Made by a program: the position numbers and the translations under genes. Shown here in pieces: positions 11,110-40,777 of a stretch of DNA of 45,251 nt (its first letter is position 1; each line of letters opens with the position of its first letter). Below the pieces are notes generated by a model. It saw nothing but the letters and a program-made list of their open reading frames with translations. It ran no database searches and had not been told where the DNA came from. Source of the DNA: Escherichia phage K1E; sequence record NC_007637.1, one strand, 5' to 3'.

Positions 11110-13642
11110 TTGGAAGAAGGAAGCAGAAGGCCGCATCTTAGTGATGGATTCTGAGGCTAAAGGCCTGCTGGATGCTATCCGATATGGCCACCGCGAAGAT
11201 GTGCACATCATTTGCTGCATGGATTTGCTTACTACAGAGGAGTTCCTCTTCTTTGACCCATACGAGATGCGTGACCCTGAAGCAAGAGAACGCCTAAAAG
11301 AATGGGAAGGCCATCAAGATGGAACATTGGTTGACGGTGTTAACTTCCTTAAACACTGCGAAGCCATCGTCTCACAGAACTTCCTAGGGTACGACGGCCT
11401 TCTATTTGAGAAAGCATTCCCTGATATCTGGAAAGGCTTTAACTATACCGAGAGACGCGGCAAGGGCAGACTCCGCGCTGACCTGTGTCCGGTACGCGTC
11501 ATGGATACGCTGGTCATGAGTCGCCTGTTAAACCCCGATAGACGCCTCCCTCCGCAAGCATACGCCAAAGGCATGGGTAACGTAGCCCCTCACTCAATTG
11601 AGGCGCACGGCATTCGTATAGGCCGTTATAAGCCGGAGAACGAGGATTGGTCTAAACTAACTGACCACATGGTACATCGTGTACGCGAGGACGTGGCGAT
11701 AGGCCGTGACCTATTCCTCTGGCTATTTAACGGAGAATGGACGGAGCACAAACGCCGTGGCGTGAATAAACGCACTGGCCTAGGTATTGAGACAGCCTTC
11801 CACATGGAGTCCATTGTGGCGCTGGAGATGAGCCGTCAGGCCGAGCGTGGATTCCGTCTGGATATAGATAAAGCATTAGCACGATGCGAGGAATTGGACG
11901 CTAAGATTGATGAGACAGTCGCAGCGTTCCGTCCGCACATGCCTATGCGTATCAAGTCTAAACCTTTTAAACCGGAAGAAAAGAATGAAGTATGCCAACG
12001 CGCAAATGAGTATGGAGCTAGCAACAATATACCTACTGTCCTTGACCCCTCTCACTTTCTTCACGCAGAGAGACGAGGAGATCGCAAGACAGTATGGAGT
12101 GTCACTACTAAGTCTGGTGATTGGTCGGCTAGCGTCAAGAAAGACTTTCCTCACCTTAGAGGAAACCGTAATGACACGCCAAGCATCAAGTGGATTGGCG
12201 CTTACTCGCCTGTTACTTTCGAAGAGATTCCCTTGGGTAACAGGGATACAGTTAAGCAAGTGCTCTATGATTATGGATGGAAAGGTGTTGAATTTAACGA
12301 TACCGAGCAAGCGCATCTCGATGAGCATGGCGTATTACCCAAGCCTTGGAGTGGGAAGATAAATGAAAAGTCCCTTACTTTATGGCAAGAGAGAGCCGCA
12401 CGTGAAGGTAAAACAGTCCCTGATTGGTGCTTGGGTATCGCTGCATGGTACATACTCGTATCCCGTCGTGGTCAGATCCTCAACCGTGGTGACGTTGAAG
12501 CCTTCGACCAGAAGGGGGTGTGGCCTTCGCAAGCTGGTATACGAAAGTGTCGCGGCCTTGTACCTGTAGCATTTAACAAGGAGTTAGGAATCAATGCGCA
12601 GCAATACTACGAAAGGTACGGATGCTGGCCTACGTCAGACAAGGATGACGGAGAATGGCGTGTGCCAGCTATTGCTATTAGTATTGGAACTTCTACGTTC
12701 CGTATGCGTCATCGTAACGTGGTTAATATTCCTGCCCGTGGTTTGTATCCTTTACGTGATTTATTCATAGCCGGTAAAGGTAAGCTAATCCTTGGTTGTG
12801 ATGGTGCTGGTCTTGAACTACGTGTACTGTCTCACTTCATGAATGACCCTGAATATCAAGATATTGTACTGCATGGTGACATTCACACCCATAATCAAAT
12901 GAAGGCTGGTCTTCCTAAGCGTGACATGGCGAAGACATTTATATATGCCTTCCTATATGGGTCTGGTATAGCTAACCTTGCAGCAGTATGTGGTGTTACT
13001 GAGGAAGAAATGGAGGAAGTTGTGGCAAGATTTGAGGTTGAACTACCATCTCTTGCACGTCTTCGTGAGAATGTTATCGCACAAGGTAACAAGTTTGGCT
13101 ACCTACAAGCACCTGATGGTCATTGGGGTCGCATCCGTATGTCTGGTGGTGAACTTAAAGAGCACACTATGCTTAACGTACTACTCCAGATGACTGGTTC
13201 TCTGTGTATGAAATACGCATTGGTCAGAGCGTTTGCAGTGATGCGCAAGGAAGGTGTGGCCTTAGATAGCATGGGAAACCCTTGCGGTATAGCTAACGTG
13301 CACGATGAAATCCAGATGGAAGTCCCTGAAGATGAGGTCTTGTATCTCAACTACGACTTGCCTTTCACCTTAGAAGGGTTCGAAACAGAGAAGGCTGCTG
13401 TGAAAGCAGTGTTCGATGCAGAGGAGAAACGTGTTCATGTGGATTCTGAAGGACGTATGTGGTCTGCTGCAAATCTCGTTAGCGTTGATGCTGATGCTGG
13501 TGTACTTCATTGCCAGCGTCGCTATCACCGTGCAGGGCATATCATTGCCGACGCAATGACTTGGGCGGGTCAGTATCTGAAGATGCGTTGTCCGATGGCA
13601 GGTGAGTATAAGATTGGTGCAAGTTGGAAGGAAACACACTGA
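11096..13642 (+). CDS. DNA polymerase, family A (848 aa)
   Basis: Track ORF trimmed to ATG 11096 (GGAG upstream). Exonuclease motif VMDSEAKG, motif A CDGAGLELRVL, motif B RDMAKTFIYAFLYG, motif C VHDEIQ. Confidence 0.9.
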   Translation: MKSIDWKKEAEGRILVMDSEAKGLLDAIRYGHREDVHIICCMDLLTTEEFLFFDPYEMRDPEARERLKEWEGHQDGTLVDGVNFLKHCEAIVSQNFLGYDGLLFEKAFPDIWKGFNYTERRGKGRLRADLCPVRVMDTLVMSRLLNPDRRLPPQAYAKGMGNVAPHSIEAHGIRIGRYKPENEDWSKLTDHMVHRVREDVAIGRDLFLWLFNGEWTEHKRRGVNKRTGLGIETAFHMESIVALEMSRQAERGFRLDIDKALARCEELDAKIDETVAAFRPHMPMRIKSKPFKPEEKNEVCQRANEYGASNNIPTVLDPSHFLHAERRGDRKTVWSVTTKSGDWSASVKKDFPHLRGNRNDTPSIKWIGAYSPVTFEEIPLGNRDTVKQVLYDYGWKGVEFNDTEQAHLDEHGVLPKPWSGKINEKSLTLWQERAAREGKTVPDWCLGIAAWYILVSRRGQILNRGDVEAFDQKGVWPSQAGIRKCRGLVPVAFNKELGINAQQYYERYGCWPTSDKDDGEWRVPAIAISIGTSTFRMRHRNVVNIPARGLYPLRDLFIAGKGKLILGCDGAGLELRVLSHFMNDPEYQDIVLHGDIHTHNQMKAGLPKRDMAKTFIYAFLYGSGIANLAAVCGVTEEEMEEVVARFEVELPSLARLRENVIAQGNKFGYLQAPDGHWGRIRMSGGELKEHTMLNVLLQMTGSLCMKYALVRAFAVMRKEGVALDSMGNPCGIANVHDEIQMEVPEDEVLYLNYDLPFTLEGFETEKAAVKAVFDAEEKRVHVDSEGRMWSAANLVSVDADAGVLHCQRRYHRAGHIIADAMTWAGQYLKMRCPMAGEYKIGASWKETH

Positions 13643-37107: not shown

Positions 37108-37390
37108 ACATGCAGCTACAGAAGATGAGGTTGGCATCCTGCATGGTGCTATTACCAAAATCTTTAATAAGAAAGCACAGGCAATACTGGACACTATAGA
37201 AGAAGACCCAGATGCAGCACTGCATTTAGTCTCTGGTAAAGACATTGGAGCTATGTGTAAGTGGGTTCTTGATAATGGTATTACCGCTACACCTGCTGCA
37301 CAGCAGGAGGAGTCCAAGCTATCTAAGCGCCTCAAGGCTATCCGAGAGGCATCAAGTGGCAAGATTATTCAATTCACTAAGGAGGATTGA
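37091..37390 (+). CDS. Putative terminase small subunit (99 aa from GTG start)
   Basis: Track ORF starts at TTG 37046 inside the holin gene; proposed start is GTG 37091 with GGAGG 7 nt upstream; position matches T7 gene 18. Confidence 0.45.
   Translation: MSVHNKHAATEDEVGILHGAITKIFNKKAQAILDTIEEDPDAALHLVSGKDIGAMCKWVLDNGITATPAAQQEESKLSKRLKAIREASSGKIIQFTKED
37182..37204 (+). promoter_or_regulatory. Weak SP6-type promoter-like sequence inside coding sequence (+1 G at 37199)
   Basis: CAATACTGGACACTATAGAAGAA; perfect core with mismatches at -17 to -15. Confidence 0.4.
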
Positions 37391-38556
37391 TGGCTAAGGC
37401 AAGAGAATCACAAGCGGAGGCTCTTGCCAGATGGGAGATGCTACAGGAGTTACAGCAGACCTTTCCTTACACAGCGGAAGGTTTGCTTCTCTTTGCAGAC
37501 ACAGTTATTCATAACTTAATTGCAGGCAACCCTCATCTGATTCGTATGCAGGCTGATATCTTGAAGTTCCTATTCTACGGACACAAGTATCGCCTCATCG
37601 AAGCGCCTCGTGGTATCGCTAAGACAACACTATCAGCAATCTATACAGTATTCCGTATCATTCATGAACCGCATAAGCGTATCATGGTTGTATCCCAAAA
37701 CGCCAAGCGAGCAGAGGAAATCGCAGGTTGGGTAGTTAAAATCTTCCGTGGCCTAGACTTTCTTGAGTTTATGCTACCGGACATCTACGCAGGGGACCGT
37801 GCCTCAGTTAAGGCATTTGAGATTCATTACACCCTACGTGGCAGTGACAAGTCGCCTTCTGTGTCTTGTTACTCAATCGAAGCAGGTATGCAGGGTGCGC
37901 GTGCAGATATCATCCTAGCAGATGACGTTGAGTCAATGCAGAATGCTCGTACAGCGGCAGGACGTGCCTTGCTTGAGGAACTGACCAAGGAGTTTGAATC
38001 TATTAACCAGTTTGGTGATATTATCTACCTTGGTACTCCTCAGAACGTAAACTCTATCTACAATAACCTACCTGCTCGTGGTTACTCTGTTCGTATCTGG
38101 ACTGCACGTTATCCCTCAGTGGAGCAGGAGCAATGCTATGGTGACTTCCTTGCACCTATGATTGTGCAGGATATGAAGGACAACCCAGCACTTCGCTCAG
38201 GGTATGGCTTGGATGGCAATAGTGGTGCCCCTTGTGCACCTGAAATGTATGATGATGATGTGCTGATTGAGAAGGAAATCTCGCAGGGTGCGGCTAAGTT
38301 CCAGCTTCAGTTCATGCTTAACACTCGCATGATGGATGCTGACCGCTATCCGCTACGCCTGAACAACCTCATCTTCACTTCATTCGGTACAGAGGAAGTC
38401 CCTGTGATGCCTACGTGGAGCAATGATTCCATCAATATTATTGGCGATGCACCGAAGTATGGCAATAAGCCTACAGACTTCATGTATCGACCTGTGGCTC
38501 GCCCGTATGAATGGGGCGCTGTCACTCGTAAGATTATGTATATTGACCCTGCTGGT
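37390..38556 (+). CDS. Terminase large subunit, exon 1 (389 codons)
   Basis: ATG 37390 with AAGGAGG upstream; Walker A-like PRGIAKTT and Walker B ADIILADDVE; similarity to T7 gp19 stops at ...IDPAG, where an insertion begins. Confidence 0.85.
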
Positions 38557-39311
38557 AAACACCTCTGCCAGCGTAAAACCCTCTTAATTCGGTGGAACTC
38601 TCACTGAGACAATACCGAGCGAAGCCTGTTGCAATAACAGGAACGTGTAGAGACTAACTGTAAGGCCAAGCGGTCTGAAACAGAGGGAGGCGCAAGCCTA
38701 AGATATAGTCCGACCTACTAGGTGACTAGTAGAAGTTAAAGTAGCGAATTAACGTAACAATTGAAGGGAGTTAAATATGACAGAGCATAAAGTTTATCAT
38801 ATTCGTGTTGTTGGTGAAACTGATGTAATGCAAGGTTATATTGGTGTAACCTCCGATATTAAGAAGCGTATGAGAGAGCACAAGTGTGCAGGCCGTCTTT
38901 GTGATGGCCGCGAGTACGTTATCTTATTCACTGGTAGCAAAGAAGAGTGTTATGCACTAGAAGAGAAGCTACGCCCACATGACAACATGGGTTGGAATAA
39001 GGGTAAAGGTGGTTATCGCAAAGCAGGTAACATCGAGAAAGGTGAACGCATAAGTATTGCCACTGAAATCAAGAAAGGACAGCACTTGTCTGTTGCCACT
39101 GAGTTCAAGAAAGGCATGACACCTTACAACAAAGGTACTGGCAAAGATTACATATTCACTTCTCCAGATGGTGAAGAGTTTCTTGTAACTTGCATTACTG
39201 ACTTCTGTAAAGAGCACAACCTAACACCTCAGAATATGCGTAAGGTGGCACGTGGTTTACGTAAACACCACAAGGGTTGGCTCGCACGTCACGTTCAAAC
39301 CGGGAGGTAAG
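38557..39311 (+). mobile_element. Group I intron (candidate, self-splicing) carrying a homing endonuclease gene
   Basis: Conserved elements in canonical order: P AATTCGGTGGAA (38586..38597), Q AATACCGAGC (38611..38620), R GTAGAGACTAACTG (38647..38660), S AAGATATAGTCC (38700..38711). P1 pairing of exon GCTGGT (38551..38556) with GCCAGC (38567..38572). The 3' boundary is uncertain: G39311 or G39302. Confidence 0.75.
38777..39310 (+). CDS. GIY-YIG homing endonuclease (I-TevI-like, 177 aa) encoded within the intron
   Basis: AAGGGAG RBS; N-terminal KVYHIRVV...GYIGVTSDIKKRMREH (GIY-YIG with conserved Arg/Glu); central repeated GERISIATEIKKG / HLSVATEFKKG units; basic C-terminal DNA-binding-like region. 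Confidence 0.8.
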   Translation: MTEHKVYHIRVVGETDVMQGYIGVTSDIKKRMREHKCAGRLCDGREYVILFTGSKEECYALEEKLRPHDNMGWNKGKGGYRKAGNIEKGERISIATEIKKGQHLSVATEFKKGMTPYNKGTGKDYIFTSPDGEEFLVTCITDFCKEHNLTPQNMRKVARGLRKHHKGWLARHVQTGR

Positions 39312-40034
39312 AATGGGGATGAAACGGGTGTGGCTATCGTCTTCCTGCACGGCACATTCATTTATGTGTATCAGTGCTTTGGTGTGCCGGGAGGATACCG
39401 CGAATCGTCCCTGAATCGCATTGTGCAGGCCGCAAAGCAGGCAGGTGTTAAAGAGGTATTCATTGAAAAGAACTTTGGTCATGGCGCGTTTGAGGCCGTT
39501 ATAAAGCCATACTTTGAACGAGAGTGGCCTGTGACTCTGGAGGAAGATTACGCCACCGGACAGAAAGAGTTGCGTATCATTGAAACACTAGAGCCACTAA
39601 TGGCGGCCCACAGGCTCATCTTCAACGCAGAGATGGTCAAGTCTGATTTTGAGTCGGTACAGCACTATCCGCTTGAGCTACGCATGTCATACAGCCTTTT
39701 CAATCAAATGTCGAACATCACGATTGAGAAGAACAGCCTACGACACGATGACCGCTTAGACGCTCTGTATGGCGCTATACGGCAATTAACTTCTCAGATA
39801 GACTATGACGAGGTTACACGGATTAATCGCCTCAGAGCGCAGGAGATGCGCGATTACATCCATGCTATGAACACACCTCACCTCCGTAGGGCAATGCTCT
39901 ATGGAGATTATGGCACTGAGCGAAGAGTAACCAACACTTCCGTGGCTATGCAGCAAAGAGTATACGGTCAGAATTACAGGAGTAAATCGGCAAGCAGAAA
40001 TACACTTTCTGCAAGGATTTCAAGGACTTATTAA
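39312..40034 (+). CDS. Terminase large subunit, exon 2 (240 codons; may instead begin at 39303)
   Basis: NGDETGVAIVFLHG...EKNFGHGAFEAV...QKELRIIETLEPLMAAHRLIFN...HDDRLDAL parallels the C-terminal nuclease domain of T7 gp19. Confidence 0.85.
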   Translation, partial: NGDETGVAIVFLHGTFIYVYQCFGVPGGYRESSLNRIVQAAKQAGVKEVFIEKNFGHGAFEAVIKPYFEREWPVTLEEDYATGQKELRIIETLEPLMAAHRLIFNAEMVKSDFESVQHYPLELRMSYSLFNQMSNITIEKNSLRHDDRLDALYGAIRQLTSQIDYDEVTRINRLRAQEMRDYIHAMNTPHLRRAMLYGDYGTERRVTNTSVAMQQRVYGQNYRSKSASRNTLSARISRTY

Positions 40035-40055
40035 TTACCGGACACTATAGAAGGA
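40033..40055 (+). promoter_or_regulatory. SP6-type phage promoter (+1 G at 40050)
   Basis: AATTACCGGACACTATAGAAGGA; followed by an AT/purine-rich leader that shares AGGTTATATAGGTATT with the 6847..6986 region. Confidence 0.75.
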
Positions 40056-40198
40056 AGGCCCAGATAATAAGAGAAATAACAAGGATAATATAGGTTAACC
40101 TAGGTTATATAGGTATTCCTTAGTATGGGTGTACTCCTGTACACCCTATTCCTTACTTCCTTACTATACTTACATAATAGGAGAGAGAGAGAGAGAGA

Positions 40199-40477
40199 AT
40201 GTCTAATAGTTATAGTACACAACCTCTTACAGGTAAGTCTGCTCGTAAGCAGATACAACCTGTTAGTGAAGCCCTTATGCTTCCTGTAGTTTACGAGGAC
40301 ACTGTTGAGAAGAAAGGTGATGTTATTAATGATGCCACCAAATCAGGTAAGCAGAAAGGGGCCATGGTGTGTCTTGATACACATGATAACCTGGTTATTG
40401 CTATCGCAGTTGATGGCAAAGAAGATTCCAATTGGTTGACAGCTAATAAAGCGGTCACTACTATTACCCCAGCTTAA
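40199..40477 (+). CDS. Hypothetical protein (92 aa), paralog of the next gene
   Basis: ATG 40199 preceded by AGGA plus a (GA)9 run; shares SGKQKGAMV and overall layout with the 40490 product. Confidence 0.55.
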   Translation: MSNSYSTQPLTGKSARKQIQPVSEALMLPVVYEDTVEKKGDVINDATKSGKQKGAMVCLDTHDNLVIAIAVDGKEDSNWLTANKAVTTITPA

Positions 40478-40489
40478 GAGGAGAGTTAC

Positions 40490-40777
40490 ATGTCTAAATA
40501 TGGAACCGCAGGTACTGTTACTGGTCAGGCTTTTCGAGTAAAAACTGTACAAACCACTGCAACGGCAATCCCTTTGCCTATTGTTGCTGAAGCAGACCTT
40601 AAGAAGAAAGATCATCCTATCAACATTAAACACCTCTCTGGTAAACAGAAAGGTGCCATGGTTGCTGTAGAGAAAACAGACCAATCCTTGTACATCGCTA
40701 TTGCACGTGGGAGTGAACCCACCGACAAGTGGGATGCAACTACTATGGAGTTGGACCCTGTAACACCTGCGGCTTAA
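40490..40777 (+). CDS. Hypothetical protein (95 aa), paralog of the previous gene
   Basis: AGGAGAG RBS; shared motifs LSGKQKGAMVAV and IAIA. Confidence 0.55.
   Translation: MSKYGTAGTVTGQAFRVKTVQTTATAIPLPIVAEADLKKKDHPINIKHLSGKQKGAMVAVEKTDQSLYIAIARGSEPTDKWDATTMELDPVTPAA

Follow-up and report, generated by a model that had tools for sequence, protein, structure and literature searches.

Tandem repeats between two distance-sensitive signals give graded or on/off expression in bacterial chromosomes as slippage adds or removes whole units. Described cases are the TA repeat between the -35 and -10 elements of H. influenzae hifA/hifB and the poly-G promoter spacer of N. meningitidis porA, for both of which the switching and its phenotype were shown experimentally (PMC3899988). 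Simple repeats also regulate from the 5'-UTR. The heptamer repeat of H. influenzae hmw1A and the poly-G tract of M. tuberculosis espR modulate translation or mRNA processing by their length, through leader RNA structure or RNase III processing (PMC12721329, PMC11898584). Synthetic, unstructured CA/AU dinucleotide tails, placed 5' of the hairpin-sequestered ribosome-binding site (RBS) of the MS2 coat gene, likewise put a repeat beside the site of initiation (PMC5934652).

Here, we analyze a perfect (GA)9 repeat that fills the spacer between the Shine-Dalgarno (SD) sequence and the start codon of gp41, a small late gene of a K1E-type SP6-like coliphage (genus Vectrevirus). The whole stretch of DNA analyzed, 45,251 bp, is referred to as the window. 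As in hifA/hifB and porA, the repeat stands between two distance-sensitive signals and changes by whole units, apparently through slippage, but the signals are an SD sequence and a start codon rather than promoter elements, the carrier is a lytic phage rather than a bacterial chromosome, and the effect on expression is modelled. It shares with hmw1A and espR a position in a transcribed leader; unlike those repeats it is part of no conserved structure, and the plausible variable is the SD-AUG distance. Like the MS2 tails it is a dinucleotide repeat of about 16-18 nt beside an RBS, although it consists of GA and occupies another position (PMC5934652). SP6 gp42 and the other Molineuxvirinae homologs have the same gene, promoter, leader hairpin, pyrimidine tract and SD core, but a non-repeat spacer of 5-8 nt where the window has a 15-nt perfect-repeat spacer. 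The repeat is a genuine, non-random and mutationally active feature, a modest addition to an already known kind.

Results

The repeat, GAGAGAGAGAGAGAGAGA, occupies positions 40181-40198, with a G before it at 40180 and an ATG (40199-40201) directly after it that starts a 92-aa open reading frame on the + strand. The features of the locus are the following.

40038-40054, + strand: core of an SP6/K1E-type phage RNA polymerase promoter, CCGGACACTATAGAAGG, an exact match to the consensus
40050-40198, + strand: 5' leader of the gp41-gp42 late transcript, 149 nt from the presumed start at the promoter to the ATG
40127-40146, + strand: conserved GC hairpin, GGGTGTAC-TCCT-GTACACCC, 8 bp, -13.1 kcal/mol
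40147-40176, + strand: pyrimidine-rich stretch, 73% C+U, with the unit TTCCTTAC in tandem twice at 40149-40164
40179-40183, + strand: Shine-Dalgarno core AGGAG, sharing bases with the first GA unit and pairing with the 16S 3' end over 5 bp, -7.3 kcal/mol
40181-40198, + strand: (GA)9 microsatellite, forming the entire SD-to-AUG spacer and overlapping the SD, 3-9 units among relatives
40199-40477, + strand: gp41 gene of K1E, 92 aa, homolog of K1-5 gp41 and SP6 gp42
40490-40777, + strand: gp42 gene, 95 aa, tandem paralog of gp41 (38% identical) with its own RBS, GAGGAG, and a 5-nt spacer

The last three bases of the SD sequence lie within the GA tract and what is left of the tract makes up the whole spacer before the ATG, which bears out the original prediction that (GA)9 forms the ribosome-binding region of the gene at 40199. 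Complementarity to the 3' end of 16S rRNA, as expected of an SD site, is found twice: AGGAG forms 5 bp and, inside the tract, GAGAGAG can pair with the anti-SD sequence 3'-UUCCUC-5' through 6 bp with one bulged A (-5.3 kcal/mol), 5 nt from the AUG. The canonical SD ends 15 nt before the AUG in the window, compared with 5-8 nt in relatives without an expanded tract, and is thereby three times as far from it as normal. This is outside the usual range of a canonical SD (~4-9 nt), into which the modal alleles of the relatives (5-7 nt) and the weaker in-tract site (5 nt) both fall. By our measure, SD spacings of the credible genes in the window are 2-9 nt throughout, with gp41 the outlier at 14-15 nt.

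No dinucleotide repeat in the window other than (GA)9 reaches five units, the runner-up being (AG)4 at 12388. When the window was simulated 200 times with a first-order Markov model, the longest dinucleotide repeat had 4-7 units and in no case 9, and the expected number of (GA)9 runs is ~3e-6. The tract therefore has the first property of a microsatellite, a perfect array of a 1-6 nt unit longer than chance provides (nine units in 0 of 200 simulations). (GA)9 is beyond chance, the ancestral-looking (GA)4 form is compatible with it, and the earlier remark that such a repeat is unusual in a compact phage genome holds for this genome.

We compared this region across ~40 related genomes and contigs, drawn from annotated phage genomes, IMG/VR contigs and public-assembly contigs; the pattern scan of IMG/VR contributed three new contigs only. 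Among 32 distinct haplotypes the unit count n is 3 (5 haplotypes), 4 (17), 5 (5), 6 (2), 7 (2) or 9 (1, the window), and direct reading gave the further alleles NIC06P3 (n=7) and PhiNW-E1 (n=6). Four units are commonest, and the window, representing the K1E reference type, has with nine the longest allele seen. Tract differences are always whole GA units in an otherwise near-invariant leader, the second property of a microsatellite being such whole-unit copy-number polymorphism among close relatives with conserved flanks. The SD-AUG distance ranges from 3 to 15 nt with tract length. An identical 92-aa protein is encoded in genomes with n=4, 5, 7 and 9, and an identical P0078 protein in two contigs, one with n=3 and the other with n=4. 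The (U)A(A)GGAG SD is kept in every relative except the low-coverage metagenome contig L047 (AGGCG). The mode of the K1-5 clade is also n=4, but an extra CA brings its modal spacing to 7 nt.

On a neighbour-joining tree of 700 nt of flanking sequence, these alleles require at least 12 independent length changes by Fitch parsimony and 22 or more unit steps by Wagner parsimony, counts that are approximate because the tree derives from a short, possibly recombinant region. Since three separate clades each vary in n, many events are needed under any topology; the tract varies independently in the K1E-type, K1-5-type and Salmonella-phage sublineages. The closest relative of the window in this region, vB_EcoP_B, has n=4 and 5 differences in ~700 flank sites, and alleles with n>=6 are single tips of the tree in every case. 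In one n=4 lineage 7 of 7 contigs have n=4, which would fit a lower instability of short tracts, although the sample is too small for a rate estimate. The repeat had been predicted to be slippage-prone, and 3-9 units between near-identical flanks with at least 12 independent changes agree with this; the proposed check for length heterogeneity, here run between genomes rather than within one population, returned that range.

In the phage ULINTec6 (L007, MZ997840), GGAGAGAGAAAAAAA stands ~15 nt ahead of the ATG, which is at locus position 546. The allele is as long as (GA)7 with three G's changed to A, that is, (GA)4 followed by A7, and could represent either an expanded tract that has decayed or a mistake of sequencing or assembly.

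The more distant relatives SP6, CC1, Koku, PM85, mutPK1A2, K13PH07C1L and PP1 have the promoter, leader, pyrimidine tract and SD in common with the window, with non-repeat spacers of 5-8 nt. Because they keep this design with ordinary spacers, the GA tract is derived. It would have originated at a site where SD and spacer happened to read AGGAGAGAGA. The starting point would have been an ordinary ribosome-binding site, AGGAG-AGAGA-ATG, in one subclade of SP6-like coliphages in which the SD and a 5-nt spacer spell (GA)4, presumably long enough for slipped-strand mispairing. From there the tract would have grown by replication slippage, the spacer gaining or losing whole GA units far more often than the flanks change. 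We infer slippage as the mechanism of length change, and likewise the lack of an adaptive role. Our preferred reading, which we regard as probable, is that the tract is a hypermutable dinucleotide microsatellite whose length drifts by mutation about a selected spacing of 5-8 nt, the changes being neutral or mildly deleterious, with no evolved switch. Instead of selection, a mutational threshold could account for the mode at n=4.

The model of the consequences for translation combines ViennaRNA duplex energies with a spacing penalty of the Salis-2009 form, with the parameter values reportedly used by Salis et al. 2009. It takes no account of mRNA folding, of ribosomal protein S1 or of the pyrimidine tract upstream. 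Relative initiation is 0.50 at n=3, 1.00 at n=4 (the optimum), 0.74 at n=5 and 0.46 at n=6. For n>=7 it plateaus at 0.41 if the in-tract GAGAGAG is used, whereas it is 0.039 at n=9 if AGGAG alone counts; the predicted drop from n=4 to n=9 is accordingly 2.5-fold with in-tract pairing and ~25-fold without. The natural mode of n=4 coincides with the modelled optimum for the flank of the window, an argument that is only approximate given that the modal spacing in K1-5 is 7 nt and the modelled optimum 5. In this model, n=9 would lower gp41 translation initiation relative to n=4. A moderate reduction, ~2- to 3-fold, is probable, since a GAGAGAG anywhere in the tract can pair with the anti-SD at the optimal distance. 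With anti-SD pairing offered in every 2-nt register, the effect of tract length on expression may be buffered, and such buffering would make expansions cheap and explain why they are tolerated. Of the original prediction that repeat length alters both SD spacing and expression, the first half stands (3 to 15 nt); the second stays at the level of the model, in which buffering is possible.

SP6/K1E-type promoters occur at 10 sites in the window (0.02 expected by chance), and the one before the gp41 leader is kept in all relatives. Transcription presumably starts at the G at ~40050, taken as +1 by the SP6 promoter convention. The leader folds no better than shuffled sequence (z = -0.9), and an Rfam search with it gave no family matches. 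SP6, Koku, PM85, K13PH07C1L and PP1 each have a hairpin at the same place (-12 to -14 kcal/mol) but with other stem sequences, so that its structure is conserved and its sequence is not across at least five genera. One relative has it annotated as a putative terminator, though it lies downstream of the promoter. The stretch 3' of the hairpin is pyrimidine-rich in most of nine relatives examined (53-87% C+U), and the unit TTCCTTAC is present threefold in VEc3 and L027. Candidate roles for the hairpin and the pyrimidine stretch are stability, processing, attenuation or an S1 landing pad.

Other indels in the leader also fall at small repeats, namely an A-run at 40074-40076 (2-4 A), a TA-run at 40086-40092 that is expanded to ATATATATATA in K1-5, and the 8-nt unit TTCCTTAC with its third copy in VEc3 and L027. 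L040 and L041 have a 9-nt duplication in the leader, and UTI89UKE2 has a C-run indel after the hairpin. The loci with such indels include L015, L017, L027, L040, L041 and L061. The GA tract is the busiest of the indel-bearing repeats of the leader.

Gp41 and gp42 are K1E's own names for the two small genes (PMC4837284). Both products contain an invariant SGKQKGAM motif and match PHROG 2725, and searches of Pfam, NCBIfam and PADLOC assigned neither to a family. The name 'acetyl-CoA acetyltransferase', given to the homologs by PHROG 2725, RefSeq and several GenBank records, lacks credibility: at 92-95 aa the proteins are much too short for it, and they match no thiolase in Pfam or NCBIfam. It appears to be a mis-annotation that has spread from record to record. 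For gp41, a profile search against the PDB sequences returned nothing, and its AF2 model (pLDDT 69) had no significant fold match in the PDB; among viral models it matched uncharacterised podophage proteins only, some of them ~235 aa. A faint match to GroES (E = 0.05) was rejected at an hhalign probability of 0.1%, and a faint match of one homolog to the lambda gpD family was ruled out likewise by hhalign. The gp41/gp42 pair is conserved from Vibrio to Escherichia podophages, with T11, G12, P29, S49-G50-K51, A55-M56, A70, W79 and P91 invariant, and some homologs form the N-terminal third of proteins of ~235 aa.

These observations bear on whether the tract might instead be an evolved contingency locus, that is, a heritable and reversible rheostat of gp41 dosage whose variants are selected under different hosts or conditions, as with the phase-variable simple sequence repeats (SSRs) of bacteria. 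Bacterial SSRs do tune expression from promoters and 5'-UTRs (PMC3899988, PMC12721329, PMC11898584), and the GA tract sits within an expression signal, where its length sets a functional distance; it is, however, the sole SSR in the genome and the design recurs at no other locus. Length changes are recurrent and come in unit steps, yet other leader indels at small repeats suggest general slippage rather than a dedicated device. There is no sign of a long state maintained by selection, most relatives having n=4 and no clade being fixed long, and sister lineages are without any repeat. The modelled output is graded over n=3 to 7, but its range is small, and no particular fluctuating selection can be proposed for gp41, whose searches gave neither a family nor a fold nor a defence-related match. 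We consider an evolved contingency locus unlikely, and it is quite unlikely that a strictly lytic phage of the T7 supergroup has a true one, with the GA tract as a reversible gp41 dial and every population comprising a range of expression levels for selection to sort between hosts.

Folding of the leader speaks to a further reading, in which the purine tract is an unstructured spacer or enhancer that, for want of self-pairing, keeps the start region open or serves as a standby-like landing, longer tracts being neutral or stimulating. The tract is indeed unpaired in the centroid structure of the leader, but in MFE folds tracts with n>=7 pair with the upstream TTCCTTAC repeat, a pairing absent from the centroid structure. 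A helix sequestering the SD and AUG, in which the MFE fold pairs AGGAGAG with CCUCUU (codons 9-10), was rejected as not conserved, the partner being CCCCUU or CCAUUA in relatives through silent changes; this leaves no structure for an enhancer to override. In E. coli reporters, CA/AU tails of 16-18 nt strongly raise translation, but the standby tails that have been published are located upstream of a structured RBS and not between SD and AUG (PMC5934652). The tract is 3' of the SD and is not the single-stranded stretch 5' of a structure-sequestered RBS that makes a standby site. In-tract anti-SD pairing would give a usable site in every register, but relatives keep short spacers, and we find an enhancer role improbable.

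That the tract itself is real but its count of nine an artefact of cloning, PCR, sequencing or laboratory passage of the stock, and no property of the natural phage, is a very unlikely reading. Length variation extends across many independent assemblies and technologies, and n=7 is found in three unrelated genomes. Dinucleotide repeats are prone to polymerase stutter, but nine units are a short, easily sequenced tract. Nine units occur in no other record or contig, and n>=6 was seen only in named cultured isolates, the public-run and metagenome contigs of the sample read having 3-5; an origin in passage would, however, still be true biological slippage. An action on DNA or transcription is highly improbable: (GA)n.(TC)n is a classical H-DNA-forming sequence, and this homopurine-homopyrimidine mirror repeat on a heavily transcribed late leader might form a triplex or pause the phage RNA polymerase, but 18 bp are marginal for a triplex, most relatives have only 8 bp and the more distant ones none, and no conserved partner sequence was found.

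One open reading frame of the window is what we take to be an endosialidase-like tailspike. The large-terminase gene (37387-40034) is split by a group I intron (RF00028 at 38525-38732, 63.6 bits, E = 6e-14), and the intron match is followed by a GIY-YIG/NUMOD-like homing-endonuclease reading frame at 38777-39310; this intron has already been published for phage K1E (PMC2504315, PMC4246154). KY435490 and most relatives lack the intron and have the gene in one piece of 1899 nt. It probably occurs in vB_EcoP_C, SE29, L040 and L050, in which the called gene is limited to a C-terminal part of 260 aa. The phage collection contained no record at least 99% identical to the window. KY435490.1 (L001, L030), recorded as 'K1E' with n=7, was considered as a resequencing of the same phage and set aside, having 96.5% identity over 23 kb and no terminase intron. 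It is 1 kb shorter than the window, and the name K1E is thus borne by two different genomes.

Discussion

The view of these phages is unchanged by the GA tract before gp41 unless gp41 has a dosage-sensitive role. In practice, the GA tract marks a site of likely heterogeneity in therapeutic or laboratory stocks of K1E-like phages, where assemblies can legitimately differ.

If the predicted effect on initiation is real, K1E and its relatives constitute a natural allelic series with SD-AUG spacings of 3, 5, 7, 9, 11 and 15 nt within a single leader that is strongly transcribed and elsewhere constant. Such a series would lend itself to in vivo studies of spacing tolerance and of register-independent SD pairing. 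The locus would then be a rare case in which a virulent phage has its translation initiation tuned by a simple repeat, and, were it a contingency locus after all, it would place the logic of phase variation inside a virulent phage, at the step of translation initiation.
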